A stretch of DNA of 64,000 nt, taken from assembly GCA_964649415.1 (NCBI GenBank), contig CAZYSK010000024.1, positions 4,711-68,710 of the forward strand, in the 5' to 3' direction. This stretch comes from an uncultured Anaerolineales bacterium (GTDB lineage: Bacteria; Chloroflexota; Anaerolineae; B4-G1). A program made the translations under genes and the position numbers. Under the pieces are notes generated by a model. The model worked only from the letters and a program-made list of their open reading frames with translations, had not been told where the DNA came from and searched no databases. Shown here one piece after another: positions 13,587 to 49,311 of the stretch (positions are counted from its first letter, which is position 1; every line of letters begins with the position of its first letter).

Positions 13587-13620
13587 AGACCCTAAAGGTT
13601 TCAGAGAACCTTTAGGGTCT
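13587..13620. repeat. Palindromic element, family F (AGACCCTAAAGGTT-TCAGAG-AACCTTTAGGGTCT)
   Basis: Perfect 14-bp arms in the intergenic region upstream of ltaE. A second full copy lies inside a CDS at 43183-43216. Confidence 0.85.
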
Positions 13621-13698
13621 GTAAGAGTATGACCTCCCGCGTTTGACGCGGATTTCCTCGGGAAAACAGAGGAGAATGCAGGAACTTGTTCTCTTGCG

Positions 13699-26715: not shown

Positions 26716-26790
26716 GTCGACCGAGTCTTTGAGACCAGCCATGGAGAACGGCTGGGAAGGAAACCGGGTTCTTGGCGACGCCATCTTGAT

Positions 26791-26824
26791 GGCGCGCCAT
26801 CGGAATGGCGCCTTTGTAGGAATG
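26791..26824. repeat. Hairpin+GTAG element related to families B2/C (GGCGCGCCAT-CGGA-ATGGCGCC-TTT-GTAGGAATG)
   Basis: Intergenic between mtd and the ATP-grasp gene. It is the reverse-complement counterpart of the 36-nt units at 45628-45735, with a few mismatches. A second small palindrome, GCCATC-TT-GATGGC, lies at 26780-26793. Confidence 0.6.
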
Positions 26825-26890
26825 CTGGGGCGCCGTCGCGGGAGCCTACGTCGTACGAGAGGCCCTGGTTTCTGAGGGTGGTGGAGCGGA

Positions 26891-32061: not shown

Positions 32062-33380
32062 CCGGCAAGCTGGCGGCGGATGCGCTCACGGCGGCGCTGG
32101 AGCGGATGGCGCCCGATTTCGAGTACGAGGTGGCCGTGCTCGACTACTCGGTGGCGGCTCTGATGAGTACTGACTGGATCGCACGGCAACTGGTGGATGC
32201 CCGGCGGTGCGAGGAGATTATGATCTCCGGGTGGTGTCAGGGCGATCTATCCGTCATCGAGGAGCGGCTGGGGGTTCCGGTGACTCGCGGCCCCAAGGAT
32301 CTCAAGGACTTGCCCGCCCTATTCGGTCGCGAACGGGTGATGCCAGGCTACGGCCAGTACCGGGTGAAGATCCTGGCCGAGGTCGTGGACGCTCATCGGT
32401 TGCCCTGGGAGGACATTCTGACCCGGGCCGAGTACTACCACGCCAGCGGAGCCGACATCATTGACCTGGGGTGTCCGGTGCAGGGCGGTTTCCCCCACGT
32501 GGGCGAGGTCGTGAGGAAGCTGAAGGAGCGCGGCTTTCTCGTCAGTGTGGACACCTTTGATCACGAGACGATCCTGCACGCCGATGCGGCGGGCGTGGAC
32601 TTCCTGCTGAGTGTCAACTCGAAGAACATCGAACTGGCCCCGCGTCTTGGGTGCAAGGTGGTGGTTATCCCCGATTTCGACCAGGGGCTGCCTTCCCTGG
32701 AACGCAATATTGCCCGGCTGGAGGAATGGGGGGTTCCGTATATCGTTGACCCGGTGCTGAATCCCATCAGCTTCGGTTTCACGGAATCCATCCATCGGTT
32801 CTACGAGGTGAGGCAGCGATACCCGGATGCAGAGATGCTCATGGGGTTGGGGAACCTGACCGAGCTGACCGAGGCGGACAGCACCGGCATCAACGCCGTG
32901 ATGGCCGGGATGCTTTCGGAGTTGGAGATAGACTACGTCCTGACCACAGAGGTGATCAGTTGGGCCAGAGGAGCGGTGCGCGAACTGGATCTGGCGCGCA
33001 AGCTGATGTACTACTCTCGTCAGAACCAGGTTCTGCCCAAGCACGTGGACAGCAGCCTGGTGACGGTTAAGGACCCGCTGCACGGATACACGTACTATGG
33101 CGAAGCAGATCTACGGCTGATGCAATCCCAGGTGCGGGATCGGAACTTCCGTATCTTCACCGACGACGAGCAAATCACCGTGTTCAACAGTGAGATGTTT
33201 GTCGTGGGCACCGATCCGGATGAGGTTTTCGCCCGCCTTGGCGTGAGCGAGGGCTCACACGCCTTCTACCTGGGGCGGGAGTTGGAGCGGGCGGCTCTGG
33301 CTGTGAGGCTGGGCAAGAGATACACGCAGGAGGAGCCGCTGCGATGGGGGTACTTGAGCGATCGGATTCGGAAGGGCTGA
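32028..33380 (+). CDS. Dihydropteroate-synthase-like pterin-binding protein with N-terminal extension (Orf20/MJ0301-type H4MPT biosynthesis enzyme)
   Basis: 450 aa. RYLFVTGKLA N-domain, then a pterin-binding barrel (GADIIDLGC, VSVDTF, LLSVNS, IVDPVL, GLGNLTELTEADSTG). GGAGGG lies 6 nt before ATG 32028. Confidence 0.75.
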   Translation: MSVAGPRYLFVTGKLAADALTAALERMAPDFEYEVAVLDYSVAALMSTDWIARQLVDARRCEEIMISGWCQGDLSVIEERLGVPVTRGPKDLKDLPALFGRERVMPGYGQYRVKILAEVVDAHRLPWEDILTRAEYYHASGADIIDLGCPVQGGFPHVGEVVRKLKERGFLVSVDTFDHETILHADAAGVDFLLSVNSKNIELAPRLGCKVVVIPDFDQGLPSLERNIARLEEWGVPYIVDPVLNPISFGFTESIHRFYEVRQRYPDAEMLMGLGNLTELTEADSTGINAVMAGMLSELEIDYVLTTEVISWARGAVRELDLARKLMYYSRQNQVLPKHVDSSLVTVKDPLHGYTYYGEADLRLMQSQVRDRNFRIFTDDEQITVFNSEMFVVGTDPDEVFARLGVSEGSHAFYLGRELERAALAVRLGKRYTQEEPLRWGYLSDRIRKG

Positions 33381-33399
33381 TATTTGGAGGTAGTAGAGG

Positions 33400-34284
33400 A
33401 TGCACATCAACGGCGTTGAGATTGAGGACACCTTCGCCGAGGCGTTCAAGATGCGGGCTGCACGGTTGCTCATCACTGCGATTAACCCGCAGTGGGCGAT
33501 GACGGCGGCGCAAGTGAGCACGGGTTTCGCCACATCGGTCATCGCATGTGGCTGCGAGGCCGGCATCGAAGGGGTCGTCCCGTCGGACGTGACACCCGAT
33601 GGCCGCCCCGGCGTGAGTATTCTCATCTTCACAATGGGGCCAAAGGGGATGAAGGATCAGTTGATGCGCCGCGTGGGCCAGTGTATCATGACTTGTCCCA
33701 CGACGGCCTGCTTCAACGGCCTGGAGGGCGAGGAGTGGCTCAAGATCGGCGGGACGCTGCGCTACTTCGGCGATGGGTTCCAGGCGAGCAAGCTCGTGGG
33801 GGGGCGGAGGTTCTGGCGGATACCGGTGATGCAGGGCGAGTTCCTGGTGGAAGAGCAGTTCGGCATGAAGAAAGCCGTTGGCGGCGGGAACTTCCTTATC
33901 CTGGGCGAAAGCGTCGAGGCCACGCTTGGGGCGGCCGAACGGGCGGTGGAGGCGATGCACGCAGTGGAGGGGGTGGTGATGCCGTTCCCCGGTGGCATCG
34001 TACGCAGTGGCAGCAAGACGTCGTCACAGTACAAGTTCCTGCATGCCTCGACCAACACCGCGTACTGTCCTAGCCTCCGTCGCCAGACCGACAGCGCGCT
34101 GCCGGAGGGCGTCAATTCCGTGCTGGAGATCGTGATCGATGGGCTGGATGAGGATGCGGTGAGAGAGGCGACGCGGGTGGGCGTCGATGCGGCGTGCCGG
34201 CCCGGCATCGTGCGCATCTCGGCGGGCAACTACGGTGGCACTTTGGGGCAATACCAGATTCATCTGCAGGAGTTGTGGAAGTGA
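33400..34284 (+). CDS. ftr: Formylmethanofuran:tetrahydromethanopterin N-formyltransferase
   Basis: 294 aa. VEIEDTFAEAF.MRAARLLITA, GFATSVIACGCEAGIE, RIPVMQGEFLVEE, GGGNFLILG, MPFPGGIVRSGSK, ISAGNYGG.LG match Ftr/FhcD. Confidence 0.9.
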   Translation: MHINGVEIEDTFAEAFKMRAARLLITAINPQWAMTAAQVSTGFATSVIACGCEAGIEGVVPSDVTPDGRPGVSILIFTMGPKGMKDQLMRRVGQCIMTCPTTACFNGLEGEEWLKIGGTLRYFGDGFQASKLVGGRRFWRIPVMQGEFLVEEQFGMKKAVGGGNFLILGESVEATLGAAERAVEAMHAVEGVVMPFPGGIVRSGSKTSSQYKFLHASTNTAYCPSLRRQTDSALPEGVNSVLEIVIDGLDEDAVREATRVGVDAACRPGIVRISAGNYGGTLGQYQIHLQELWK

Positions 34285-35171
34285 GGAGCACTACACTGCG
34301 TTTGAGGGACTCGGTCACTCTCCCCGTCGAGGCGGAGAGTATATCGCCCGACCGGTTTGCCGGGCTCAGTCAGGAGGAGGTGGCGGCGCTACCACTCCTG
34401 TATGGGCGGCGACCGGTGACTGTCGGCGATCTGTTCGTGGTGGAAGGGGCGGACGTTGCGGACATTCAGGTGGGACGCACTTCAGAAAGTGCGTCCCACC
34501 TGGTTGGTCGTGCGTCCGATGGGGAGGAGATCCTCCTCGAAGGTGATCTCAGTCACGTGAAGCGGATCGGGCAGGGGATGGCCAGTGGACGGATCACCAT
34601 CCGAGGCAATGTCGGCATGCATCTTGGAGCCGAGATGAGCGGGGGGGAGATCGTCGTCCACGGGAACGCCGCGGCGTGGATGGGCGCGCACATGTCCGGT
34701 GGGGTCATCCGCGTGCGGGGGGACGTCGGCCCGATGGCCGGCGCTGCCTATCCGGGAGAGAAGCGCGGTATGCGCGGCGGTTCTATTCTCGTGGAAGGAA
34801 GCGCCGGGCCGCGGGTGGGGGAGCGCATGCGGCGCGGGCTGATCGCCGTCCAGGGCGACGTGGGAGAGTTCTCCGGGGTGCGGATGATCGCCGGATCGCT
34901 CTTCGTGTTTGGCACGTTGGGGCCGAGGGCGGGCGCTGGCATGAAGCGCGGCACGATCGTCGCGCTGGGATCTATTGAGGGCGACCTGCTGCCTGTGTTC
35001 CACTATGCCTGCTCCTATCAGCCGGCCTTCCTGCGCACTTATCTGCGCCACCTGCGCGGGTGGGGTTTGCCCGTCACGTCAGATCACGTCGAGGGAGTCT
35101 TTCGCCGCTACGTTGGTGACATCACGACTCTGGGAAAAGGGGAGATTCTGGTCTATGATCGGCGTCAATGA
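34281..35171 (+). CDS. fwdC: Formylmethanofuran dehydrogenase subunit C
   Basis: 296 aa from GTG 34281 (GTGA overlap with ftr). VTVGDLFVVEG, then the repeated G-x-x-x-G beta-helix motifs (GRITIRGNVGMHLGAEMSGGEIVVHGNAAAWMGAHMSGGVIRVRGDVG...). It carries the family A insert at 34449-34506. Confidence 0.85.
   Translation: MRSTTLRLRDSVTLPVEAESISPDRFAGLSQEEVAALPLLYGRRPVTVGDLFVVEGADVADIQVGRTSESASHLVGRASDGEEILLEGDLSHVKRIGQGMASGRITIRGNVGMHLGAEMSGGEIVVHGNAAAWMGAHMSGGVIRVRGDVGPMAGAAYPGEKRGMRGGSILVEGSAGPRVGERMRRGLIAVQGDVGEFSGVRMIAGSLFVFGTLGPRAGAGMKRGTIVALGSIEGDLLPVFHYACSYQPAFLRTYLRHLRGWGLPVTSDHVEGVFRRYVGDITTLGKGEILVYDRRQ
34449..34506 (+). repeat. Repeat family A copy 1 (58 nt, 16-bp hairpin), in-frame in fwdC
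   Basis: 58/58 identical to 39417-39474. The core is CAGGTGGGACGCACTT-CAGA-AAGTGCGTCCCACCTG (34467-34502). It is translated as ADVADIQVGRTSESASHLV. Confidence 0.9.
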
Positions 35172-36126
35172 ACGCGCAGTGGAGATCGTGCGGCGGATGA
35201 TCGCCGACGCGGAGGGATTGGGGTTGGCGGTGACGCGACTGCCGAACGGGACCACGGTGATCGATGCCGGTGTGCGGGTGCCCGGCTCGTTGGAGGCGGG
35301 ACGGCTGTTTGCTGAAGTATGCCTGGGGGGACTTGGCCAGGTTGGTTTCGCTGAGCTCGATTTCGACGACATGTGGCTGCCGGGAGTTTCCGTCTCGGTG
35401 AGCCACCCAGCGGTGGCGTGCATGGCGTCGCAGTATGCGGGGTGGTCGCTCGAGGCCAAGACCGAGAAGGGAAAGTACTTCGCGATGGGCTCCGGTCCAG
35501 CGCGGGCGCTTTACGCCGGGGAGCCGATCTTCGAGCGGCTGGTGATCCGGGACGAAGCCGATGTGGCAGTCCTGGCACTGGAGGGGCACGAGTTGCCGCC
35601 GGAGGTGGCAGCGGACAAGGTGGCCGAGAAGTGCGGGGTCTCTCCCGATGCGCTCTATCTTCTGGTTGCGCCTACCGCCAGCGTGGTGGGCTCGGTGCAG
35701 ATCGCTGCGCGTGTGGTGGAGACTGGGTTGCACAAGATGTTGGAGGTGTGCGACGGGGAAGACCTTGACATCGCTACGGTGGTGTCTGGCTTCGGCACCT
35801 GTCCCCTAGCGCCCGTCGCGGACGACGACCTGCGGGCCATCGGGCGCACCAACGACGCCGTGCTCTACGCTGGTCGGGCATGGTACACGATGAAGGCGGA
35901 CGACGCGCAGATCGAGGAGATGATTGACTGTTTACCCTCGTCGGCGTCACGGGACTACGGAACCTCCTTCTATGAGCTCTATCAGCGCTACAACGGTGAT
36001 TTCTACAAGATTGACCCGCTGCTCTTCAGTCCGGCCGAGGTGTTTATCAACAACCTGGGCAGTGGCCGCACGTTCCACGCCGGGCGCGTCAACGGCCGAA
36101 TGCTAAGGAAGGTGCTTCTGGAGTGA
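35155..36126 (+). CDS. mch: Methenyltetrahydromethanopterin cyclohydrolase
   Basis: 323 aa. Near-collinear with Methylobacterium/archaeal Mch: RMIADAE, LACMASQYAGW, FAMGSGPARA, GSVQIAARVVE, GRTNDA..YGG, SSASRDYG.F.E....YNGDFY.ID..LFSPAEV. Confidence 0.92.
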   Translation: MIGVNERAVEIVRRMIADAEGLGLAVTRLPNGTTVIDAGVRVPGSLEAGRLFAEVCLGGLGQVGFAELDFDDMWLPGVSVSVSHPAVACMASQYAGWSLEAKTEKGKYFAMGSGPARALYAGEPIFERLVIRDEADVAVLALEGHELPPEVAADKVAEKCGVSPDALYLLVAPTASVVGSVQIAARVVETGLHKMLEVCDGEDLDIATVVSGFGTCPLAPVADDDLRAIGRTNDAVLYAGRAWYTMKADDAQIEEMIDCLPSSASRDYGTSFYELYQRYNGDFYKIDPLLFSPAEVFINNLGSGRTFHAGRVNGRMLRKVLLE

Positions 36127-37043
36127 GAATCGGCATTCTTGGGCAGCGGGGGGGCTGGCACGTGCGTGCCCTGCAGCAGGCATTCGCTCGACGGGGCATC
36201 ACCGCCCCCTCGTTTTCTATTACGTGGCTGAAGGCGCGCCTGTCGGCGCGCCCATGGCTGACGGCCCCGGCCGATCAGGCCGACGCGGATGCGGGCATCC
36301 GCCTTCGGGATCTTGACGGAGCAGCACTGGAAAGCTACGACGTCTTGTTCGTGCGCGCGATCCCTGGGGGCTCCTTGGAGCAGATCATCTTCCGCGTGGA
36401 CGCGCTCCATCGCCTGGAAAACGCCGGCGTACGCATCGTCAACTCACCGGCGGCCATTGAGCGCACGGTGGACAAGTACTACACGTCGACGCTCCTGGAG
36501 GATGCGGGTCTGCCCACACCGCGCACAGTGGTCACCGAACGGTTCGCCGATGCGATGGCAGCGTTCCACGAGCTGGGGGGCGACGTTGTGGTCAAGCCCA
36601 TCTTTGGCTCGGAGGGACGGGGCATCGTGCGCGTCTTGGATCCGGACACGGCCTATCGGGTCTTCCGAGCGTTGGAACTGGGCCGCTACGTGTATTATCT
36701 TCAGGAGTTCGTGCCCCACGGCTGCCAGGACGTGCGTGTCTTTGTCGTCGGCCAGGAGGTGGTGGCCGCGATGACGCGCCGGGGAGAGACGTGGAAGACG
36801 AACGTGGCGCAGGGTGCTAAAGGCGAGCCGCTGGCGATCGACGACGAGCTGCGCGCGATGGCCCTCCAGGCAACCCGTGCATTGGGGGCCGATTACGCGG
36901 GCGTGGACATTCTCCCGCTTTCGGGCGGAGGCTATAGTGTGATCGAGGTCAACGGCATCCCCGGTTGGCGCGGTCTTCGGGCTGCGACCGGGGTGGATGC
37001 TGCTGACTGCCTGGTAGAATACGTTCTGGGAGAAGCGCGATGA
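36123..37043 (+). CDS. mptN: RimK-family ATP-grasp ligase, MptN-like (tetrahydromethanopterin:alpha-L-glutamate ligase by context)
   Basis: 306 aa. DKYYTSTLLEDAGLPTP, VVVKPIFGSEGRGI, YLQEFV, DVRVFVVG, GVDILP, VIEVNGIPGWRG. GTG 36123 overlaps the mch stop. Confidence 0.65.
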   Translation: MRIGILGQRGGWHVRALQQAFARRGITAPSFSITWLKARLSARPWLTAPADQADADAGIRLRDLDGAALESYDVLFVRAIPGGSLEQIIFRVDALHRLENAGVRIVNSPAAIERTVDKYYTSTLLEDAGLPTPRTVVTERFADAMAAFHELGGDVVVKPIFGSEGRGIVRVLDPDTAYRVFRALELGRYVYYLQEFVPHGCQDVRVFVVGQEVVAAMTRRGETWKTNVAQGAKGEPLAIDDELRAMALQATRALGADYAGVDILPLSGGGYSVIEVNGIPGWRGLRAATGVDAADCLVEYVLGEAR

Positions 37044-37927
37044 CACCTCTAGGACTGGACAAGATCGCATGGGCTGTCCACATTGCATGCCTGTTCGAGG
37101 TATGTGCCGACAAGCCGGGCAACGTGACCTGGGGCAAGGATTTCTGGGACACGCGCTTTGTCGACTTCCTGGCCAGTGCTATCGCCATTGGGCCTGCCCT
37201 GCGGGACGCGACTCACACCTCCGTTGGCCAGACCATCCTGCGGGCGGTGAACGACACCCACCAATTCGTGAGCACTAATACCAACCTGGGGATGGTCCTT
37301 CTGCTGGCTCCGTTGGCAAAGGCGGCCGGGCGGGGTCATCCCAATGGACTGCGGCTGGCTGTGAGCGAGGTATTGGAGGCGTTGACCGTGGAGGATGCCC
37401 GCTTGACGTTCGAGGCGATCCGCCTTGCCGCTCCGGGGGGCCTGGGCAGCGATGGTCGCTACGACGTGCACAGGGCAGACGTGGACGTGACGCTCAGAGA
37501 AGCTATGCGGGTGGCTCAGGATCGAGATACCGTGGCGCGGGAGTACGTGACGGACTTCGAAGTGACTTTCGAGCTTGGATACGCGACGCTCCGCCGCTTG
37601 TGGGCAGAGGGCCGCGGATTCTCAGAGTCCATTGTCCAGACTTCCCTCACTATCCTGTCGCAGATGCCGGATACGCTGATCGCGCGCAAGGAAGGAATGG
37701 ACGTTGCTTTGGACGTATCGCGGCGCGCCGGTGTCGTGTTACAGCACGGAGGGGCTTTCTCCGAGCAGGGCCGGGCGGCGTTGCGGGCATTCGATCTGTC
37801 GATCCGGGATGACAAACATCGTCTGAATCCGGGCACCACGGCGGACTTGATCGCAGCTTCGCTCTTCGTCTTCCTGACGGAGGGGGGCGCGTTCGAGGAC
37901 TTCCCGGAGTTGCTTGCACGTTGGTGA
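37040..37927 (+). CDS. Triphosphoribosyl-dephospho-CoA synthase (CitG/MdcB)-family protein ('Orf7' of C1 clusters)
   Basis: 295 aa. EVCADKPGNV, TNTNLGMVLLLAPL, DTLIARK, NPGTTADLIAASLF. ATGA overlap with mptN. Confidence 0.7.
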   Translation: MTPLGLDKIAWAVHIACLFEVCADKPGNVTWGKDFWDTRFVDFLASAIAIGPALRDATHTSVGQTILRAVNDTHQFVSTNTNLGMVLLLAPLAKAAGRGHPNGLRLAVSEVLEALTVEDARLTFEAIRLAAPGGLGSDGRYDVHRADVDVTLREAMRVAQDRDTVAREYVTDFEVTFELGYATLRRLWAEGRGFSESIVQTSLTILSQMPDTLIARKEGMDVALDVSRRAGVVLQHGGAFSEQGRAALRAFDLSIRDDKHRLNPGTTADLIAASLFVFLTEGGAFEDFPELLARW

Positions 37928-38003
37928 GGCAGTCGGCAAAGCAGCAAATCGGCAGAGGGGAGATTGTTTGACACGGTCGCGAGGTGCGGGAGGAACATCG
38001 GGT

Positions 38004-39095
38004 ATGGACCGCCGGCATCCTGCCGGCATGACTCGGGCGCACGATACGGGTCCGCAAGGCCCGCGCTTGCTGTGCGAAGGGTTCGCGGTGTTGACGGCAG
38101 ATGGCCTGATCTTCACGGTCAAGGGGTTGGTTCATCCCCCTGAGCGGGTGATCGCGTATCTGCGGTATCTCCCCGATCCAGAGGGCGGTCGGGAGCGCCT
38201 GGGCGTGCGCTACCGGCGCGTCTACCACTTCGAGGAGCAATTGGAAGTGCTCCAGAATCGCTTCCCGCACTATCTGTGGGACGATGAGGTGTTCGGGGTG
38301 CGTTTGCAGAGCGTGCCTCGGCGTTTTGTCCGGGAGGCATTCGATCCCTGCCTCTGCCTGGCTGATCTCCGTGACCGGGGTCCGGCCGACCTGGTCGAGG
38401 AACACGCCCTGGGTCTGTCGGAGCTGCTGAGAGACGTGGCCGGTGTGCCCGGCGAGGATCTGGGTGTCTCGGGGTCGGTGATGGTGGGCACGCACACAGA
38501 GAACTCGGACATTGACCTCCTCGTATATGGTGACGCGTCGGGGCGGGCCGTCCACCGAGCGCTTCAGCGTCTGTTGGATGAGCCGGGGAGGCCCGTGCGT
38601 CGCCTTGACGGGCAGGAGATGGCCGCACTGCACGCCGAGCATCGGCCGGACACCCCACTGTCTTTCGAGGATTTCTCCCGGCTTCAGAATCGCAAGGTCA
38701 ACGAGGGGCGCTATCGGGGGCGGGAGTATTTCATCCGCTTCGTGAAGCGACCATCGGAGGTGAGTGAGCGGTATGGGGATCGCCGCTTTGAGGCACTGGG
38801 GCAGGCCACGATTCGGGCGGAGGTGACGGACGCCCGTGATGCGATTTTCACGCCCTGTCGCTACACCGTCGCAAACGCGACGGTTCTGGATGGCCCGCCC
38901 GCGCCCGACTTGCGCGAGGTGGTCTCCTTTCGGGGGCGCTTCAGCGACCAGGTGCGCGTAGGTGAGTGGGCCATCGCCCGGGGGAGCCTGGAGCGGGTTG
39001 TGGTCGAAGGCGAGCGGGTGTATCATCACCTGGTCGTCGGTGGACAGGCGGGCGACTACGTGCGCCCTGAGCGCGTGACGTCCCCCGTTCAGTAG
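38004..39095 (+). CDS. Pol-beta-superfamily nucleotidyltransferase-like protein with C-terminal OB-like domain (paralog 1)
   Basis: 363 aa from ATG 38004 (GGAGG 10 nt upstream; ORF-track TTG 37914 is an alternative). NTase signature LGVSGSVMVGTHTENSDIDLLVYG. Clearly paralogous to 42119-43303 over its full length. Confidence 0.6.
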   Translation: MDRRHPAGMTRAHDTGPQGPRLLCEGFAVLTADGLIFTVKGLVHPPERVIAYLRYLPDPEGGRERLGVRYRRVYHFEEQLEVLQNRFPHYLWDDEVFGVRLQSVPRRFVREAFDPCLCLADLRDRGPADLVEEHALGLSELLRDVAGVPGEDLGVSGSVMVGTHTENSDIDLLVYGDASGRAVHRALQRLLDEPGRPVRRLDGQEMAALHAEHRPDTPLSFEDFSRLQNRKVNEGRYRGREYFIRFVKRPSEVSERYGDRRFEALGQATIRAEVTDARDAIFTPCRYTVANATVLDGPPAPDLREVVSFRGRFSDQVRVGEWAIARGSLERVVVEGERVYHHLVVGGQAGDYVRPERVTSPVQ

Positions 39096-39128
39096 GGGCG
39101 CGGTTTCCGCGCCCGCCGGAGTGCCAGA

Positions 39129-40070
39129 GTGCCGGAGTTGATGGCTTTGGAGTCTGAAGACAGGGAGTTGGATACGAAACGGGCTGCGCTGAGGGAAACG
39201 TTCGCCGATATGGAGCGCGTGCTGGTCGCCTACTCTGGCGGCGTGGACAGCGCGTTTCTGCTGTGGGCTGCCTTGGACGCGCTGGGCCCGGAGCGTGTGC
39301 TGGCCGTGACCGCTTCCTCGCCCATATTCGCCCGCCGGGAGTTGAGGGCAGCCGAGGACTTGGCGCATCGCTTGGGGGCTCCCCATCGTTTCGTGCGCAC
39401 CATGCAACTGGAGGATGCGGACGTTGCGGACATTCAGGTGGGACGCACTTCAGAAAGTGCGTCCCACCTGGTTGATGGTGCGCCCGTGAAATTCGCGACG
39501 AATCCGCCGGAGCGATGCTATCTTTGCAAGCGGGAGATATTCGCCCGGCTGGTGGAGGTGGCCCGCGAGGAGGAAATACCCTGGGTCGTCGAGGGCTCCA
39601 ACCTGGACGACCGTGACGAGTACCGGCCAGGCACCCGGGCAGTGCGTGAGTTGGACGTGCGAAGCCCGTTGGAGGAGGTCGGACTGACCAAGGCGGACAT
39701 CCGGGCTCTCTCCCGGCGCGTGGGCTTGCCGACGTGGAATCAGCCAGCGCAGACCTGTTTGGCCACGCGCTTCCCGCACGGCACGCCGATCACGCGTGAG
39801 CGGCTGGAGCGGGTGGAGGCCGCTGAGGTGGTGTTGAGGGAGATGGGATTCGGCGAGCTGCGGGTGCGGGATCACGTCGACCCTGCGGCGGGTCCTATCG
39901 CCCGCATCGAGGTGCTCCGTGAGGATGTGGCACGGCTGGCGCGACCGGAAGCCGCGGAACGGGTGGTGGCCGCGCTGCGGGGGCTGGGCTACGACTACGT
40001 CACGTTGGACCTGGGGGGCTACCGGCGCGGTGGCCTCAGTGGGCAGGTTGGTGAAGTAGTAGATTGGTAG
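39129..40070 (+). CDS. larE: LarE, ATP-dependent sulfur transferase of nickel-pincer (NPN) cofactor biosynthesis (PP-loop ATP pyrophosphatase)
   Basis: 313 aa. PP-loop VAYSGGVDSAFL, DDRDEYRPG, CLATRFPHG, RVRDH, YVTLDLGGYRRG. There are three Cys: CYLC 39516-39527 and TGT 39756-39758. It carries the family A insert at 39417-39474. Confidence 0.85.
   Translation: MPELMALESEDRELDTKRAALRETFADMERVLVAYSGGVDSAFLLWAALDALGPERVLAVTASSPIFARRELRAAEDLAHRLGAPHRFVRTMQLEDADVADIQVGRTSESASHLVDGAPVKFATNPPERCYLCKREIFARLVEVAREEEIPWVVEGSNLDDRDEYRPGTRAVRELDVRSPLEEVGLTKADIRALSRRVGLPTWNQPAQTCLATRFPHGTPITRERLERVEAAEVVLREMGFGELRVRDHVDPAAGPIARIEVLREDVARLARPEAAERVVAALRGLGYDYVTLDLGGYRRGGLSGQVGEVVDW
39417..39474 (+). repeat. 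Repeat family A copy 2, in-frame in larE
   Basis: Identical to 34449-34506 and in the same reading frame (ADVADIQVGRTSESASHLV). The hairpin is at 39435-39470. Confidence 0.9.
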
Positions 40071-40131
40071 ATTGGTACATTGGTACATTGGTAGATTGGT
40101 AGATTGGTACATTGGTACATTGGTCAATCGG
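40060..40131. repeat. Octanucleotide tandem array [(TAGATTGG)2(TACATTGG)2]x2 + TCAATCGG
   Basis: Nine 8-nt units from 40060 to 40131. The second unit contains the larE stop codon TAG (40068-40070). The array fills the larE-larB spacer. Confidence 0.9.
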
Positions 40132-40143
40132 AGTGTGATATAG

Positions 40144-40887
40144 ATGGAAGTGAAGTGGTTGCGTGAGTTGTTGGAGAACGTACGAGAGGGCGAGACGGAC
40201 ATAGAGGATGCGTTGGCCCGGTTGCGGGGATTCCCCTACGAGGATCTGGGATTCGCCCGGCTGGACAGCCATCGCACCTTGCGCAAGGGTTTCCCCGAGG
40301 TGATATTCTGCCCGGGCAAGACTACCGGGCAGATCGTGCAGATCGTAGAGCGAATCCGGGCGCGGGAGGGGCGGGTGATGGCGGCGCGCGCCGAGCCAGC
40401 GGTGGCAGATGCGGTACAGCAGGCTTTTCCCGACGCGGTCTATCATCCTGCCGCGCGGATGATCGTCGTCGGTGAGCCGGCCCCCCAGCAGGGACGGGGG
40501 ACGGTGCTTGTGGTCAGCGCGGGCACCGCAGACATCCCGGTGGCCGACGAGGCCGTCGTGACGGCTGGGACGATGGGCAGCCCCGTGGAACGGCTGTACG
40601 ACGTCGGCGTGGCGGGCATTCACCGGCTGCTGGGCAACCGTGACCGCCTGTTCGCCGCCAATGTGCTGGTGGTTGTGGCCGGGATGGAGGGAGCGCTGGC
40701 CAGTGTCGTGGCCGGCCTGGTGGACCGGCCTGTTGTGGCTGTCCCCACCAGTGTCGGCTACGGGGCCAGTTTCGGCGGGTTGTCTGCGCTGCTGACGATG
40801 TTGAATAGCTGCTCACCCGGCGTGTGCACGGTCAACATCGACAATGGGTTTGGGGCGGGATACCTGGCTCACTTGATCAATCAGTGA
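40144..40887 (+). CDS. larB: LarB, NPN cofactor biosynthesis carboxylase/hydrolase (PurE-like)
   Basis: 247 aa. N-terminal LD.HR..R.GFPEVIFCPGKT, then a PurE-like core VLVVSAGTADIPVADEA, VVVAGMEGALASVVAG, VVAVPTSVGYG. Confidence 0.85.
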   Translation: MEVKWLRELLENVREGETDIEDALARLRGFPYEDLGFARLDSHRTLRKGFPEVIFCPGKTTGQIVQIVERIRAREGRVMAARAEPAVADAVQQAFPDAVYHPAARMIVVGEPAPQQGRGTVLVVSAGTADIPVADEAVVTAGTMGSPVERLYDVGVAGIHRLLGNRDRLFAANVLVVVAGMEGALASVVAGLVDRPVVAVPTSVGYGASFGGLSALLTMLNSCSPGVCTVNIDNGFGAGYLAHLINQ

Positions 40888-42118: not shown

Positions 42119-43303
42119 GTGACAGATATGCAGGAGAGGCGCAAGCCCAAGGACCGGGACTTCCTCCGTACCCGCGAGGGCATGTTCTTCTGTGTGACCG
42201 GTTATCTGCACCCGCCGGATCGGTATACCGCCTATCTCAAGTATTCGCCTGCTGCGTCGGGGAAGTGGCACAATGCGGAGACGGCCTACCAGCGGGAACT
42301 GCCTTACTACCACGTCCGCAGTGTGGAGGATACAATCCAGCATCTGGAGGCGCATTACCCCTGGTACGTCGCGGATTGCCCCGTCCGGAATATCCGCTTC
42401 TCAATGGTGCCCCGGGAATACGTCGCCCGCTACTACGATCCACAGGAGCGGTTGAGGGAGATACTGGCGCATCCTGGCGACTCGCTGGAGGAGGAGGTGT
42501 GTGGTCTGGCGACCGAGATCGCCGAGACCGCCGGCGTGCCCGTCGGCGATCTGGGTATCACGGGATCGATCCTGATCGGATTGCACAACCCGACCTTCTC
42601 GGATATTGATCTGGTGGTGTATGGGCGGCAGAGCGCCCGTCGGGTGCGCCGGGCCTTGGGCGCGGGGGACAACGAATCGGGAAAGGAACGAAGGGGGAGA
42701 GCAGCGCAGTCCGCTGCGCCGCGAATCCGCGAGTTGGGCGCGGCGTTCATCGAGCGCTGGAGCCGGGGAATCGCGGAGCGCTTTCCCTTGACGGTGAGTG
42801 AGGCGCAGTATCTCGCCCGCCGGCGTTGGAACTACGGCTGGTACGGGGAGCGGTATTTCTCGATCCACCCGATCCGCACGGATGACGAGATCACCGAGCA
42901 CTACGGAGATCACATCTACCGCGGCCAGGGAGCCGCACGAATCCGGGCCACCGTTGTCGGCACGAGCGACGCGCTGTTCATGCCCGCCGGGTACCTGCTG
43001 GCGGACGTGGAGGTCTTGGAAGGCCTTGCAGAGGCGGCGGATGTCCGGGAACTGGTCTCCTACGAGGGTCTCTATCGCGACGTGGCCGACGTGGGGCAGA
43101 GAATCGAGGCCAAGGGGAACGTGGAGCGAGTGGACGCGGACATTGCGGACATTGATAGCGCGTCCGTCCGTGCGTCCGCGGCAGACCCTAAAGGTTTCGG
43201 AAAACCTTTAGGGTCTGACATCAGGCTGGTGGTCGGCACGAGCGCCCTCAAGGGTGAGGGGTACATACGGCCGCTTCCCGCCGGGGATAGCGCGGACAAC
43301 TGA
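42119..43303 (+). CDS. Pol-beta-superfamily nucleotidyltransferase-like protein (paralog 2)
   Basis: 394 aa. LGITGSILIGLHNPTFSDIDLVVYG. Collinear with paralog 1 except for two extra segments, which coincide with the repeat elements at 42664-42720 and 43136-43216. Its stop overlaps the next ATG (TGATG). Confidence 0.6.
   Translation: MTDMQERRKPKDRDFLRTREGMFFCVTGYLHPPDRYTAYLKYSPAASGKWHNAETAYQRELPYYHVRSVEDTIQHLEAHYPWYVADCPVRNIRFSMVPREYVARYYDPQERLREILAHPGDSLEEEVCGLATEIAETAGVPVGDLGITGSILIGLHNPTFSDIDLVVYGRQSARRVRRALGAGDNESGKERRGRAAQSAAPRIRELGAAFIERWSRGIAERFPLTVSEAQYLARRRWNYGWYGERYFSIHPIRTDDEITEHYGDHIYRGQGAARIRATVVGTSDALFMPAGYLLADVEVLEGLAEAADVRELVSYEGLYRDVADVGQRIEAKGNVERVDADIADIDSASVRASAADPKGFGKPLGSDIRLVVGTSALKGEGYIRPLPAGDSADN
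42664..42720 (+). repeat. Composite repeat B copy 2 (B1 42664-42697 + B2 hairpin with flipped loop 42704-42719), in-frame
   Basis: B1 is 34/34 identical to 27559-27592. The hairpin is GCGCAG-TCCG-CTGCGC, against GCGCAG-CGGA-CTGCGC in copy 1. It is translated as GDNESGKERRGRAAQSAAP. Confidence 0.85.
43136..43216 (+). repeat. Double hairpin element in-frame in paralog 2: GCGGAC-repeat hairpin (43136-43179) + family F palindrome (43183-43216)
   Basis: GCGGACATTGCGGACATT...GCGTCCGTCCGTGCGTCCGC, then AGACCCTAAAGGTTT-CGGA-AAACCTTTAGGGTCT. It is translated as DADIADIDSASVRASAADPKGFGKPLGSD. Confidence 0.8.
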
Positions 43304-44670
43304 TGGCGGAAGCGGTCTTCCTGATATACGTCGCCACGGTCATGGTGATGGGCGTCAAGGCCAAAGCTAAGACGCTGGAGACGTTCATCCTGGGCGACGT
43401 GCTGGACACGAAGACGATGGTGGCCACAATCGTGTCCACGTTCTACGGCGCGTCTGCCATCCTTGGCGGGGTGAGCCTGACGTACCAGTTGGGGCTGGAC
43501 GTAATCTGGTTCATGGTGCCCTTCTATCTGGGCAACGTGGCCATCATCCTCTTGCTCAAGCGGATCGCTTCCTCAGAAAGGTGCACGCTGCCAGGCTTCC
43601 TGGGCGACTTCTACGGCAATGGGTTCGCTGTGGCAAGTTCGATGCTGTTGGTGACTCTGTGCCTCGTTCCGGAGGAGATCATCGCCGGGGGAAAGATCCT
43701 ATCCCTGTTCACGTCAATGCCCGTGGAGGCGGCGATGGGCGCTATGACCTTCGTGTTGGTGGTGCCTGTTGCCATCGGCGGGATGAAAGCAGACGTGATA
43801 ACGGATATCGCTCAGTTCGCCCTGATGTTGATCATGCTTGGCGTCATGGTGCTGTTCCTCGGCCATACGGGCCGCCTGGGCCTGCAGCCGGACCTGGACT
43901 CGGGTGTCCCGCCCGGGCATCTGACTCTCTGCTCGTCTCTATCGCTGCAGGAAATCGCCGTGTTCTTCGTCTCCTTCTTCTTCCTGCCGATCACCTCAGC
44001 ACCTCTGTACCTGCGCTTCTTTGCCTCGGAGTCAGAAGCGTGCTCCAGGAAATCGGTGCTGTCGTCTGTCGCGATATGGATGGTCGTAGACGCGATCATC
44101 GTGCTCTGCGGCTTCGCGGCCCTGCGGATGTTTCCGAACCTGGACGATCCAGATATGTCGTTCGTCCTGCTTGGGATGGCGATGCCCCCGGTGGGTCGGG
44201 GCGTGTTCACTATAGGGCTGCTGGCCGCGATCATGAGCACGGTGAACTCCTTTCTCCAGTCCGGGGCGTCAAGCCTGGCGCACGACGCATTCAGGCATTT
44301 CATGCCTGGAACCAGTGACCGGCGATTGCTCGCGCTGTCCAGGGTGTTCGTGATTGTGCTGGGCTTGCTGAGCCTGGCGCTGGCTCTGTGGTTCCAGATG
44401 ATCGTGCCGGCGCTGTTGTTCACGTTGAGTATGTGGACGGCCGGGGTGCTGGTTCCCACTCTGGCGGCTCTCAGCGGCGTGCGGTTGAGGAAGCGGTCGG
44501 CGTGGGCCAGTCTGGCGGCCGGGACACTATCCTGTCTGGCCTGGCAGATGGCGCAGCCGTTTCAGGTAGATGCGTTGTTCGTCGGCCTGGGATGCTCTGT
44601 GCTCGCCGCGCTTATCTCGGAAGTCCTGCCCGGTCGCGCTCAGGGGGCGCAGCGGACTGCGCCTTGGTAG
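43303..44670 (+). CDS. Sodium:solute symporter (SSS) family transporter
   Basis: 455 aa with about 12 TM segments. GGMKADVITDIAQF-type motif. The last 8 codons and the stop (GAQRTAPW*) are encoded by repeat unit 1 at 44644. Confidence 0.75.
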   Translation: MAEAVFLIYVATVMVMGVKAKAKTLETFILGDVLDTKTMVATIVSTFYGASAILGGVSLTYQLGLDVIWFMVPFYLGNVAIILLLKRIASSERCTLPGFLGDFYGNGFAVASSMLLVTLCLVPEEIIAGGKILSLFTSMPVEAAMGAMTFVLVVPVAIGGMKADVITDIAQFALMLIMLGVMVLFLGHTGRLGLQPDLDSGVPPGHLTLCSSLSLQEIAVFFVSFFFLPITSAPLYLRFFASESEACSRKSVLSSVAIWMVVDAIIVLCGFAALRMFPNLDDPDMSFVLLGMAMPPVGRGVFTIGLLAAIMSTVNSFLQSGASSLAHDAFRHFMPGTSDRRLLALSRVFVIVLGLLSLALALWFQMIVPALLFTLSMWTAGVLVPTLAALSGVRLRKRSAWASLAAGTLSCLAWQMAQPFQVDALFVGLGCSVLAALISEVLPGRAQGAQRTAPW

Positions 44671-44742
44671 AGGAGCGGGGCGCAGCGGACTGCGCCTTGG
44701 TAGAGGAGCGGGGCGCAGCGGACTGCGCCTTGGTAGAGGAGC
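44644..44742 (+). repeat. Three perfect tandem 33-nt units of hairpin module B2 (GGGGCGCAGCGGACTGCGCCTTGGTAGAGGAGC)
   Basis: Units at 44644-44676, 44677-44709 and 44710-44742, then a degenerate start of a fourth unit. Each has the GGCGCAG-CGGA-CTGCGCC hairpin followed by TTGGTAG. Confidence 0.9.
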
Positions 44743-44798
44743 GGGGTGAAGCGGTGAATCCGCGAGGAGAAAGGGTCGGGCCACGACTGGGCCTCAAT

Positions 44799-45611: not shown

Positions 45612-45627
45612 TGATATAGCGAGCCAT

Positions 45628-45735
45628 CATCCCTACAAAGGCGCCGTTCTGACGGCGCACTAACATCCCTACAAAGGCGCCGTTCTGACGGCGCGCTAAC
45701 ATCCCTACAAAGGCGCCGTTCTGACGGCGCGCTAA
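45628..45735. repeat. Three tandem 36-nt units, family C (CATCCCTACAAAGGCGCCGTTCTGACGGCGCRCTAA)
   Basis: Units at 45628-45663, 45664-45699 and 45700-45735, between convergent genes. Hairpin GCGCCGT-TCTG-ACGGCGC with CTAC 3 nt upstream. The last unit supplies the stop codon (45732-45734) of the minus-strand lipoprotein gene. Confidence 0.9.
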
Positions 45736-46608: not shown

Positions 46609-46734
46609 GGGGGCGGCGCGTATGGAAACGCGCCCTACGTTGGCCGATGGTTCGGCGGGGGCGGCGTGTATGGAAACGCGCCCTACGTTGGCTGATGGTT
46701 CGGCGGGGGCGGCGCGTATGGAAACGCGCCCTAC
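46609..46734. repeat. Tandem 48-nt units x2.6, family D (GGGGGCGGCGCGTATGGAAACGCGCCCTACGTTGGCYGATGGTTCGGC)
   Basis: Units at 46609-46656 and 46657-46704, plus a partial unit at 46705-46734. Hairpin GGCGCGT-ATGGAA-ACGCGCC is followed directly by CTAC. The array fills the spacer between the FtsX permease stop and the lipoprotein start. Confidence 0.9.
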
Positions 46735-46749
46735 AGGGATTGGGGATCG

Positions 46750-49311
46750 TCACTCGTATTGCACCGCCCGCACGATGTTGACTTTCGTGGCCCGCCACGC
46801 CGGGTAGAGGGACGCGAGCTGGGAGATGCCCAGCGCGAGGACCGCGCCGACGACAAGCAGGCTCTTGGGCAGGACGAACTCCAGTTCCCAGCCTGAGCTC
46901 TGTGCCATTCCCTGCACGGCGAAGTAAGCCACGTACGTCCCAACCGCCACCCCGAACAGCCCACCGAGGATGCCGATGATCAAGGCCTCGGCCAGGACCA
47001 TCCTGACCACCTGCCAGCGGGTCATGCCGACTGCCCGTAAGATTCCGATCTCCCGGATACGCTCCAGGACGTTCATCGTCATCGTGTTGGTCACGCCCAG
47101 CGTACCGATGACAATGCCGATTCCGACGACGATGTCGAAGAAGGTCATCACCGACATGAACTCCTTCAGCCATCTCTCCCTGTAATCCTGTCCGGACGCC
47201 ACCTCGATGTGCCGGCGCTTGCCGTACTGGTCCTCCATCCGCTGCTGTACCTGGTCGACATCGGCCCCTGGCGCGACGTCCACAACGAAGATGTCGGCCT
47301 TGTCCGTCCTGAAGTAGCGCTGTAGATCTGGCCAAGAGCCTGTGACCGACTGGCCGCCCCACGTATAGTCCGCGATCACGCCGGCCACGGCGAAGTCCTG
47401 TTCTCCACGGGACGTGCGGAGACGGATGGCGTCGCCCTTTCCGAAGTCATACTTCTCGCTCATCAGAGTGGAGATGAACACCGCGTTCCCCTCCACCAGG
47501 CGCTCCACCATCGCCTGCCCATCGCCCTGACCTGAAGCGAACTCGAATTCGCTGATCTGGATGTACTCCAGGGGTTTGACGGCTACAAAGGCGACGTCGT
47601 CGTCCTGGGGGGTGAAGCCCTCGTGTGTCGTGGTCCCCGCCACCTTAGTGTGCTGGTAGCGCATAGGTGTGATCCCGACCACGCCCTCGATGGTCGCCAG
47701 TTCCTCCCGCAGGTCGAGCCGCATGGGTTGGTAGGAGTCTACGAACAGATCCCCCTGCATGGCCGTTTGCATCCAGGCTCTTACGTCAGACGTCATACTC
47801 GTTGATTGCGCACCGATCACGATGAGCATGAGCACGCTCATCGTCAGAGCGCCGGCCGTGACGGTGGTGCGGCCCAGAGCCCGGTTGACGTTGCTGCCCC
47901 CGATCCGCCCCTCGGTGCCGTAGAGGAGGGCGATGGCGGGCCGGGCGAGCCGCTCCAGCAGGCGGATGACGAGGGGGAGGAGCAGCGTGACACCGGCCAG
48001 GAGGACCAGGAAGGTCATCTGGTCAAAGCCCATCTGGGCGACGTCCTCGGGGATGGGAATGAACGACGTGGACTCGGCCAGGAGTATGAGCGCCAGCCCG
48101 ACCTTCCAGCCGTGCCGGATGAGCCAACCTGCCTTGTGCCCTGTGCCTCTGACGGTCAGGGCCTGGATGGGTGAGATACGGCCGGCGCGGATGGCAGGAA
48201 TGAGCGCGCCGCCTATTGTCACTGCCATTCCCACGGCCAGTCCGGCGATGAGGCCGCTGGGTGGCACGGAAAGGGTCCACTCGGTCAATCCAAAGGGCGC
48301 ACTGAGCATGCGCGTCATCGCCAGGGACAGCAGCAGCCCAAGGAGGATGCCGAGGAGAGAGCCTGCGAGCCCTAGAATGAGGGCCTCGGACAGAATGAGG
48401 CGGAAGTTCTGCCCCTTGGTGGCGCCGACTGCCCTGAGCATCCCGATCTCGCGCATGCGCTCCACGACTGTCATCGAGAACGTGTTGAAGATCAGGTACG
48501 CGCCCCCGAACAGGGCTGTGGCGGCGAAGAAGCTGAGCCCCAGGGATATGCCCTCCAGCGCTTCGGTGATGGTCTTGGCCCTGGCGGCGGGGTATAGGGC
48601 TTCGTAGGACGCGCCCACTTCATCCTGGAGCGCGGCCTTCAGCCGATCCAGTGTGCTGGTGGATTGGGCAATCTCTTCCTTGGCGATGATGTCGATGGTG
48701 TCAATCCTGTGTCGCCGTGCAAAGATGTCCTGGGAGTCCGTGAGGGGCATCACGATCTGCGCCCGCCGGGCCGGTCCCTCCTTAGCCATGATGCCCACGA
48801 CCAGGACCTGCTCCGGCCCCTGGGCCCCCAGGAGTGTCACGTTCTCGCCTACCTCGATACCATGCTCGGTGGATAGATCCTTCACGACGATGGCCGTGTA
48901 CTGCCGGGCGGCGGACAGAAAGCTGCCTTCGACCATATGGTATGGGCGCACGCGTGCATCTATCTCCGGGTCGACGCCGTAGACTGTGAGGGCGATCTCT
49001 CTGTCTCCGAGCAAGAGCATGGTTTCGTTGGCGGTGCTGGGCACGGCCAGCGCGACTCCCTCGACGGCTCGAACCTGCTCCAGGAGGCGCTCGTCGAACC
49101 CGTCCTCGGATATGGAGGCGGCCTGGACTGTGAGGTGGGCGGAACCTGCCACGTCGGCGAAGAGGGCTTCGAAGCCGGCGAGTATGCTCTGGTTCGCGAT
49201 GGATATGCTGACAATCGTGGCTACTCCCAATATAATGCCGGCGGCCGTCAGCAGGGTGCGGCTAGGCCTGGTCCAAACGTTTCGGAGAGCTAGCGCGGAC
49301 AGACGTTGCAT
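46750..49311 (-). CDS. ABC transporter permease with two FtsX domains (MacB/YbbP-like)
   Basis: 853 aa. Two FtsX-type 4-TM modules, each preceded by a large extracytoplasmic domain. It lies downstream of the ATPase gene. Confidence 0.85.
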   Translation of the reverse strand: MQRLSALALRNVWTRPSRTLLTAAGIILGVATIVSISIANQSILAGFEALFADVAGSAHLTVQAASISEDGFDERLLEQVRAVEGVALAVPSTANETMLLLGDREIALTVYGVDPEIDARVRPYHMVEGSFLSAARQYTAIVVKDLSTEHGIEVGENVTLLGAQGPEQVLVVGIMAKEGPARRAQIVMPLTDSQDIFARRHRIDTIDIIAKEEIAQSTSTLDRLKAALQDEVGASYEALYPAARAKTITEALEGISLGLSFFAATALFGGAYLIFNTFSMTVVERMREIGMLRAVGATKGQNFRLILSEALILGLAGSLLGILLGLLLSLAMTRMLSAPFGLTEWTLSVPPSGLIAGLAVGMAVTIGGALIPAIRAGRISPIQALTVRGTGHKAGWLIRHGWKVGLALILLAESTSFIPIPEDVAQMGFDQMTFLVLLAGVTLLLPLVIRLLERLARPAIALLYGTEGRIGGSNVNRALGRTTVTAGALTMSVLMLIVIGAQSTSMTSDVRAWMQTAMQGDLFVDSYQPMRLDLREELATIEGVVGITPMRYQHTKVAGTTTHEGFTPQDDDVAFVAVKPLEYIQISEFEFASGQGDGQAMVERLVEGNAVFISTLMSEKYDFGKGDAIRLRTSRGEQDFAVAGVIADYTWGGQSVTGSWPDLQRYFRTDKADIFVVDVAPGADVDQVQQRMEDQYGKRRHIEVASGQDYRERWLKEFMSVMTFFDIVVGIGIVIGTLGVTNTMTMNVLERIREIGILRAVGMTRWQVVRMVLAEALIIGILGGLFGVAVGTYVAYFAVQGMAQSSGWELEFVLPKSLLVVGAVLALGISQLASLYPAWRATKVNIVRAVQYE

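Follow-up and report, generated by a model that had tools for sequence, protein, structure and literature searches.

The 64,000-nt stretch of contig CAZYSK010000024.1 analysed here (assembly GCA_964649415.1, from an uncultured Anaerolineales bacterium), referred to below as the window, carries two closely similar 69-nt palindromic insertions in conserved protein genes, one in larE and one in fhcC (or fwdC). The element is most probably a repetitive extragenic palindrome (REP) with a GTGG tag that was mobilised by a REP-associated tyrosine transposase (RAYT), landed in both genes and was kept as a tolerated and translated in-frame loop. In-frame palindromic elements (the Rickettsia palindromic elements, or RPE, as well as Correia, ERIC and YPAL) and intragenic REPs are already established, and what is new here is the REP family with its set of host genes, not the kind of element. 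Four observations are distinctive: the length of the perfect stem, a nested composite that appears to move as a unit, the presence of several in-frame repeat families within 64 kb and the RAYT genes inside type I restriction-modification (R-M) operons. The coordinates of the features are collected in Table 1.

The insertion in larE

The window LarE is matched by the NCBIfam LarE model TIGR00268 at 294 bits, and the match is broken into two stretches by the insert. In the protein the order is TMQLED-ADVADIQVGRTSESASHLVDGAP-VKFATNPPERCYLCK. For comparison, 120 homologues were retrieved and two alignments were used, one of 21 sequences (A1) and one of 108 sequences (A2). The extra block of the window LarE was found in no other sequence of these two alignments (127 alignment rows). 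The protein keeps all 37 invariant columns of the 108-sequence alignment, including C130, C133, K134 and C210, and retains both the CxxC motif and the third Cys.

The limits of the insert are given by two syntenic orthologues, L090 and L091, which share with the window the loci fhcD-fhcC-mch...larE-larB-larC. The window codons read CTG GAG GAT-(69 nt)-GTG AAA TTC, and the corresponding empty sites read, at the DNA level, CTG GAG GAC|GTA GGC TTC in L090 and CTG AAA AAC|GAA CAG TTC in L091. Because the codons of L090 and L091 are uninterrupted and the window site is filled, the insert is placed at 39417-39485. A one-G ambiguity remains at the boundary, so that 39418-39486 fits equally; the latter choice yields the inverted termini CGGACG...CG(C/T)CCG.

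A preliminary description of this DNA had placed one repeated element in larE just upstream of the CxxC motif, and this holds, as the CYLC motif starts 10 residues downstream of the insert. The presence of the insert was thus correctly recognised, whereas its extent (39417-39474, or 19 residues) was given too short against the real 23 codons; the peptide reported for it omitted DGAP, and 'VK' stands before FATNPP. The statement that the Lactobacillus enzyme has no room for the element agrees with the structure of LarE from L. plantarum (PDB 6b2o/5udq), in which 13 residues lie opposite 36 query residues, leaving 23 extra residues in the window protein.

A different insert was observed in three other LarE relatives (P0005, P0011 and P0014). 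It is a tandem duplication with GVRSPLQG repeated, located at another site (A1 columns about 201-220), and represents further loop-length variation within the LarE family.

The second copy in fhcC

The other host gene encodes a protein that is matched by TIGR03122 at 263 bits and also by PF01493. Its true start probably lies near 34272-34290, as judged from the orthologue N-termini in L090 and L091, and the mechanically called open reading frame (ORF) begins at 34194. The copy at 34449-34517 matches that in larE in both orientation and reading frame, as had been claimed at the outset. The two 69-nt inserts are identical at 66 of 69 positions, without any difference in the first 57 nt, and an alignment of the two window copies extends over 78 nt at 92% identity.

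The homologues are empty here as well. None of 150 FhcC/FwdC cluster representatives has residues aligned to residues 86-105 of the FhcC query, and the structures 5t5i_C and 6s6y_C in the PDB show a gap at the insert position. The site is also empty in L090 and in L091, where it reads GTG GAA GGG|GAC GGG. A shorter insert of 20 residues, in which 'RAS' would be native to FhcC, had been suggested by a MAFFT alignment. It was discarded because GTGCGTCCG belongs to the repeated module and because a length of 23 codons is supported by L091, the closest orthologue.

Architecture of the 69-nt element

The core of the element is a hairpin, CAGGTGGGACGCACTT-CAGA-AAGTGCGTCCCACCTG, with GTGG at the base of its stem. 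The window contains exactly two occurrences of this 36-nt core, compared to 0 expected (100 shuffles), and the two copies sit 5 kb apart in one gene cluster. When folded in a context of 96 nt, the larE copy reaches -46.1 kcal/mol (z = -4.6) and the fhcC copy -52.5 kcal/mol (z = -6.8).

The core is enclosed by two flank modules, of which the left one is identical in both window copies and in a related locus, L020. The flanks, CGGACGTTGCGGACATT and GTTG(G/A)T(C/G)GTGCG(T/C)CCG, pair mutually and thereby form a longer hairpin. Both belong to a 21-nt mini-palindrome, CGGACRTTGATCGTGCGTCCG, whose in-frame reading is 'ADVDRAS' and which is also found in metagenome contigs of the Ga01804xx series, both singly and in tandem at a spacing of 21 nt. 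The 69-nt unit is a REP hairpin nested within the mini-palindrome as an outer shell. When the entire window was scanned against Rfam with gathering thresholds, no match was returned. A T-tract after the hairpin is absent, and a scan of 33300-40300 for terminators and promoters called neither copy as terminator-like.

Distribution of the hairpin family

The family was traced with an exact pattern of the inner 26 nt in GTDB species genomes and in metagenomes. Ten loci in GTDB species genomes contained the core: seven from Anaerolineae/Anaerolineales, one from Thermoflexia, one from a Chloroflexota metagenome-assembled genome (MAG) and one from an unrelated Alistipes. A further 78 loci with the core pattern came from metagenomes. 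The Alistipes locus (L008) and some others that match the 26-nt pattern are unrelated hairpins with different outer stems, and were left out of the interpretation. The hairpin-bearing MAGs, together with the named LarE homologues, suggest that the window itself probably comes from a member of the Chloroflexota. When up to two mismatches per arm were allowed, about 97 core copies were counted in the 551 kb of retrieved DNA, and most of these abut gene starts or ends, i.e., they are intergenic. The local density reaches five copies in the 4.3-kb contig L009 and three in 1.9 kb of L038, compared to two per 64 kb in the window.

Across the family the loop varies (CAGA, TCTG, CGGA, TCCG, GAGA and also loops of 3 nt), whereas the stem is conserved. 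Among 34 distinct hairpin variants 92.9% of the cells are paired, and the inner GCAC/GTGC is invariant. Both sides change in 7 of the 15 pairs (e.g., GG/CC to CA/TG, A/T to T/A and T/A to C/G), a covariation score that was reached by none of 500 shuffles. GTGG is found at the stem base in nearly all copies of the Chloroflexota type and is paired with CCAC here.

Both window copies are located inside ORFs, unlike the mostly intergenic family, and thus depart from the extragenic location of a typical REP. This does not exclude membership, because intragenic exceptions have been published (PMC3733652).

In the alignment of hairpin variants (A4), several variants (e.g., GGTGCATCGCACTT...AAGTGCAACGCACC) show A·C mismatches that would correspond to G·T wobbles on the opposite strand. 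These mismatches hint that the hairpin may be selected on one particular single strand, be it single-stranded DNA or RNA.

Association with a RAYT transposase

In eight of the loci selected by the hairpin, a protein of roughly 190 residues matches PF01797 (Y1_Tnp). The motifs PNHYH (HUH) and RY(I/L)HxNP are invariant across the eight sequences, and two of the proteins were scored by the NCBIfam model NF047646 (REP-associated tyrosine transposase), which has a cutoff of 80 bits, and reached 80.0 and 69.9 bits. The retrieved RAYT loci come from samples other than that of the window. In five of the eight hairpin-selected loci (L007, L018, L034, L038 and L074) the hairpin is found within about 25-90 bp on both sides of the RAYT gene, and in two (L041 and L045) on one side only. 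The sole hairpin near the RAYT gene of L006 is a degenerate copy about 160 bp downstream.

As a control for circularity, RAYT homologues were also picked by protein similarity alone, and four such loci (L093-L096) were compared. L093 and L095 carry the hairpin or its compensated variant GGTGCAACGCACTT on both sides of the gene; L094 carries the hairpin or this variant on one side, together with a downstream half-site, and in L096 only related half-sites were found. The homologues comprise 3,741 clusters at E <= 1e-30. Some of them had received the name RayT or 'Transposase IS200 like [Chloroflexi]' at their source, and several bear the JGI name 'REP element-mobilizing transposase RayT'. It is by such bracketing of a RAYT gene by its repeat, seen in these related loci, that a REP/RAYT system is defined.

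In eight distinct loci the RAYT gene lies inside a type I R-M operon, in the order hsdM-RAYT-hsdS-hsdR or hsdM-hsdS-RAYT-hsdR, with hairpins at the gene junctions as well as inside hsdR and hsdS. L094 is the only RAYT locus without hsd neighbours. In the literature searched, no paper was found that combines RAYT or REPIN with 'type I restriction'. This side observation, a RAYT clade at home in type I R-M operons, is possibly a more original lead than the insertions.

Reading frames of the in-frame copies

Internal copies were accepted when recognisable domains were present on both sides. The accepted copies, listed in Table 1, are spread over fhcC, larE, fhcA, a GNAT acetyltransferase, the restriction subunit HsdR and an anti-sigma factor. 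In the GNAT gene of L020 the full 69-nt composite is present with an extra mini-palindrome and in the same frame as in the window; the version in L062 is shorter. The terminal copies in hsdS, at the N- as well as the C-terminus, likewise begin in frame a. Overall, frame a is used in about five of seven independent internal events (P about 0.045 against an expectation of 1/3). The preliminary description had asked whether all intragenic copies of the genome use the same frame; run on related genomes, this comparison shows that frame a prevails, though not exclusively.

Four of the six combinations of orientation and frame of the 69-nt unit are open and two contain stops. With the open frame that is used, the peptide is mildly acidic and lacks Cys, Trp and Pro. 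Of the other open frames, one would give a peptide with a charge of about +5 and two Trp, one a peptide with three Cys and one a peptide with two Cys and six Pro. In all accepted intragenic copies the reading frame stays open, which is expected if the insert is translated and would be needless if it were cut from the RNA. Two explanations had been offered for the shared frame at the outset. Selection for a tolerated peptide is favoured by these results; a strictly frame-locked mechanism is not supported, given the copies in frame b and the HsdR site that is read in two frames.

L090 is empty in fhcC and larE and filled in fhcA, and insertion therefore appears to be ongoing and independent in the lineage. 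At the fhcA position L091 has a non-repeat loop of similar length, which is possibly a decayed insertion.

Several long ORFs that span hairpins (L032/35, L033, L034-5030, L053/59, L065, L074, L014/77, L057 and others) were considered as intragenic cases because of their length and left uncounted, being wrong-frame, of low complexity or weak in the G+C content of third codon positions. A census of peptides was also attempted, in which concatenated open-frame translations of the 69-nt unit were compared to a set of 5.8 billion proteins. It returned 72 candidates with one match (P0121), a spurious ORF over a hairpin array. The word index is unsuited to short peptides, and the census was therefore built on loci selected by DNA.

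Table 1. Positions of the element, its modules and host genes in the window, and related copies in other loci
Feature	Position	Strand	Details
larE host gene	39129..40070	+	313 aa with the insert counted
69-nt composite palindromic insert in larE	39417..39485	+	23 codons, codon phase 0; encodes ADVADIQVGRTSESASHLVDGAP
Left flank module CGGACGTTGCGGACATT	39418..39434	+	two CGGACRTT(G/C) half-units of the 21-nt mini-palindrome family
REP core in larE	39435..39470	.	perfect 16-bp stem, 4-nt loop
Right flank module GTTGATGGTGCGCCCG	39471..39486	+	forms the mini-palindrome's right arm and base-pairs with the left module
fhcC/fwdC host gene (formylmethanofuran dehydrogenase subunit C family)	34272..35171	+	TIGR03122, PF01493
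Second 69-nt copy, in fhcC/fwdC	34449..34517	+	same orientation and frame as the larE copy; encodes ADVADIQVGRTSESASHLVGRAS
REP core hairpin in the fhcC copy	34467..34502	.	identical to the larE core
Mini-palindrome CGGACRTTGATCGTGCGTCCG sites	L062 6723-6760; L020 1437-1520 and 2037-2353; L039 229-265		
In-frame copy, fhcC (window)			VGRTSESASHL; frame a
In-frame copy, larE (window)			VGRTSESASHL; frame a
In-frame copy, fhcA (L090, GCA_054919575.1, closest syntenic relative)	L090 371-402		VGRTFRSASHL; frame a; reads HEVGRTFRSASHLGGRARS
In-frame copy, GNAT acetyltransferase (L062; L020)			VGRTFRSASHL; frame a
In-frame copy, HsdR site 1 (L002)			VGRTSEVHPT; frame a, passing to b across a 3-nt loop
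In-frame copy, HsdR site 1 (L006, orthologous to L002)			RWDALQKVRPT; frame b
In-frame copy, HsdR site 2 (L006)			VGRTSEVRPT; frame a, passing to b
In-frame copy, anti-sigma factor (L064)			RWDALRKVRPT; frame b
RAYT loci embedded in R-M operons	L006, L007, L034/L095, L041, L074, L093, L096, L097-L100		related loci, outside the window

Translation and tolerance of the insert

The LarE protein was modelled with AlphaFold2 from the 108-sequence alignment. The mean predicted local distance difference test (pLDDT) was 90.8 and the predicted TM-score (pTM) 0.87. In blocks of 10 residues across LarE 91-120 the pLDDT falls to 71, 48 and 63, and residues 99-107 stay below 50. The insert, which is modelled without secondary structure, and the C-terminus are the only poorly modelled parts. 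In fhcC the insertion site is a linker of varying length among homologues, and both copies sit in surface linkers of variable length. The insert is probably translated as an extra loop, because its length is a multiple of three, its frame is free of stops, its sites are length-variable linkers and a low-confidence loop is predicted within a confident fold. This loop is probably disordered. The tryptic or junction peptides predicted for it are TSESASHLVGR in FhcC, TSESASHLVDGAPVK in LarE and TMQLEDADVADIQVGR.

These conserved enzymes would add further cases of translated mobile palindromes, one of them 10 residues from the cluster-binding CxxC of LarE. Together, the filled and empty sites form a natural test of how well loop insertions are tolerated in LarE and FhcC. 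Reading the insert as a REP matters for the annotation of these proteins in Chloroflexota MAGs, since the two odd sequences of the window can be explained as REP insertions, not as errors, pseudogenes or new domains.

Origin of the element and alternative explanations

The following course of events is proposed. The two copies would have landed in fhcC and larE, probably recently, with the 69-nt composite behaving as one unit. They were most likely mobilised in trans, through a RAYT that acts on hairpins of single-stranded DNA, and insertion would have left no target duplication beyond one ambiguous G. The copies would persist as presumably neutral additions, since the genes are left unbroken: the insert has exactly 23 codons, a stop-free frame and a hydrophilic peptide without Cys, Trp or Pro, at sites that appear tolerant. 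The shared frame would then stem mainly from purifying selection on surviving insertions, possibly helped by a preference for G-rich targets at codon boundaries.

Several points weigh against this account. A RAYT gene was not found within the 64-kb window by tblastn, and in the related loci the match to the NF047646 equivalog is borderline, at or just below the cutoff. The window holds only two copies in 64 kb, compared to the high copy number typical of REPs. The excess of frame a comes from a small, hand-curated set. Furthermore, a G+C-rich hairpin of 16 bp inside an ORF could hinder ribosomes, and both the translation of LarE and FhcC and their enzyme activity with the insert are predictions from the sequence.

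The shared frame might alternatively be a product of the insertion step, if a transposase or repair motif fell preferentially at the codon boundaries of a high-GC genome (e.g., N3|G1, with a G/C-rich third and a G-rich first codon position). Such codon-phase-specific insertion is unlikely. In its favour, both window copies begin at a codon boundary before a codon that starts with G (GGG|GAT and GAT|GTG), the upstream motif TGGARG is common to both sites (TGGAAGGG^GAT and TGGAGGAT^GTG), and three independent 69-nt composites (fhcC, larE and the GNAT gene of L020) stand in one frame. A second repeat family (D7) is likewise found in the same frame in two different window genes, and the over-representation of frame a points the same way. 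However, this excess is predicted by survivor bias alone, a motif is not definable from two target sites, and frame is without meaning for the majority of copies, which are intergenic. The RWDALQKVRPT-type reading at the HsdR site and in the anti-sigma factor is in the other frame, and the orthologous HsdR site is even read in different frames in L002 and L006. A bolder version, in which codon-phase-biased REP insertion is a natural process of in-frame peptide insertion that lengthens enzyme loops and is functionally coupled to the R-M system, is quite unlikely; if true, one form of this coupling would be that RAYT and REP shape the expression or specificity of the hsd operon. This version draws on the R-M setting of the RAYT gene in eight loci and on the several repeat families of the window that are inserted in frame, each pair in one frame, and it would make the REP/RAYT system more than a mere genomic parasite. 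It is very unlikely that the hairpin was selected as a cis-regulatory element (for ribosome pausing, as an RNase III or RNase E site or as a protein-binding palindrome) that coordinates the methanopterin one-carbon (C1) and lar genes. The perfect stem in both copies, the compensatory changes across the family and the position of both copies in one gene cluster would suit this role, and REPs elsewhere do affect mRNA stability (PMC3733652). The hairpin is, however, equally conserved at intergenic sites and beside RAYT genes, its hosts elsewhere are unrelated (R-M, GNAT and anti-sigma genes), and the orthologous genes of the syntenic relatives are without the element, L090 having one in fhcA instead. 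The lack of an Rfam family match and of a terminator signature also speaks against regulation.

Removal of the segment before the mature protein is formed, whether intron-like, intein-like or by translational bypass, is extremely improbable. The strong hairpin recalls the take-off and landing contexts of programmed bypassing, but introns of group I or II and inteins are much larger than 69 nt or 23 codons, and the copies in the window, L062, L020 and L090 are all read through in frame, which would be needless if they were removed. Here, too, no Rfam family is matched, and documented in-frame palindromic elements are translated (PMC2229807). Descent from an insertion sequence with a DDE transposase, as a classical MITE (miniature inverted-repeat transposable element), is hardly credible either. 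It would account for the 6-bp terminal inverted repeats (CGGACG...CGTCCG), the small size and the several copies. On the other hand, a target-site duplication is absent at both sites apart from the ambiguous G, the length falls under the usual MITE range of 70-300 bp, and conservation is centred on the hairpin in the middle, not on the termini. This hairpin flanks Y1/HUH genes, not DDE genes.

Relation to known palindromic repeats

The RPE are reportedly the subject of Ogata et al. 2000 in Science and of Abergel et al. 2006. Like the window element, they are palindromic repeats that lie in frame in conserved protein genes, are read as extra surface peptides and are tolerated by the enzymes. 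RPEs are 105-146 bp long, A+T-rich and restricted to Rickettsia, and to our knowledge no transposase has been identified for them. The window element, with 69 nt, a high G+C content, a Chloroflexota-like context and no sequence relationship to the RPEs, does not belong among them.

The REPs and bacterial interspersed mosaic elements (BIME) of E. coli and their transposase TnpA-REP (a RAYT) are said to have been treated by Nunvar 2010 and Ton-Hoang 2012. The resemblance lies in the HUH/Y1 transposase gene between cognate REP hairpins and in the mosaic REP clusters with linker motifs; the hairpin nested in a mini-palindrome is likewise a mosaic that brings BIMEs to mind. The E. coli REPs are extragenic and form imperfect palindromes, about 35 nt long, in which GTAG is unpaired, whereas the tag here belongs to a perfect stem and some copies are coding.

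For a translated palindrome in an enzyme there is a precedent in the guanylate kinase that bears an RPE and was found to be translated and active (PMC2229807). The REPINs (PMC3116915, Bertels & Rainey 2011) resemble the window element in being non-autonomous, in forming long hairpins and in being thought to be mobilised by a single-copy RAYT. However, a REPIN consists of two inverted REPs with a spacer, whereas the window unit is a single REP hairpin in an unrelated mini-palindrome and hence has a different layout. The closest likeness is to the GTAG/CGTC-tagged REPs of Di Nocera et al. 2013 (BMC Genomics 14:522; PMC3733652), which are short stem-loops, rich in G+C and tagged by GT(A/G)G, mostly intergenic and associated with RAYT genes ('REPtrons'). 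A minority of them lies wholly inside ORFs, adding 20-30 residues, in several phyla; the GTGG variant of the GTAG tag was reported for Opitutus terrae, and the REPs of Thermomicrobium roseum (Chloroflexi) sit inside small palindromes, as does the core of the window element (PMC3733652). The stem, however, has another sequence and, at 16 bp, is unusually long beside the 5-13 bp given there; in the window the elements are hosted by C1 and cofactor-biosynthesis enzymes, whereas DNA-repair genes are emphasised there (PMC3733652). The RAYT of the window hairpin family is further distinguished by its place inside type I R-M operons.

Further repeats in the window

A nucleotidyltransferase-like ORF after larC (42119-43303, + strand) contains an apparent in-frame insertion at 43130-43217. 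It begins with units of the mini-palindrome (GCGGACATTGCGGACATTG...GTGCGTCCG), after which comes a second hairpin family, AGACCCTAAAGGTTTC-GGAA-AACCTTTAGGGTCT, and it reads DADIADIDSASVRASAADPKGFGKPLGSD, about 21 residues beyond the paralogues. Copies of this second hairpin at 13587-13621 and 955-989 are apparently intergenic. The same ORF also carries one copy of a 65-nt repeat (42656-42720), the other copy of which is found at 27551-27615 in an ATP-grasp ORF (26891-28129). The two copies are 83% identical, include the hairpin GCGCAG-CGGACT/GTCCGC-TGCGC and stand in one frame in the two unrelated genes, reading GAGDNESGKERRGRAAQSAAP and AGGDNESGKERRGEGAQRTAP, respectively. The L091 orthologue is without about 10 residues of this peptide.

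At 40040-40135 about eleven tandem 8-nt units (TTGGTAGA / TTGGTACA) take in the final ~31 nt of larE together with the stop codon at 40070 and continue into the larE-larB intergenic spacer. Three arrays of other hairpin-containing repeats were seen at 44644-44754, 45619-45735 and 46609-46752 (and 26787-26837). Each has three head-to-tail copies, and the periods are 33, 36 and 48 nt; together they give a region that resembles BIME clusters, in a genome rich in several palindromic repeat families.

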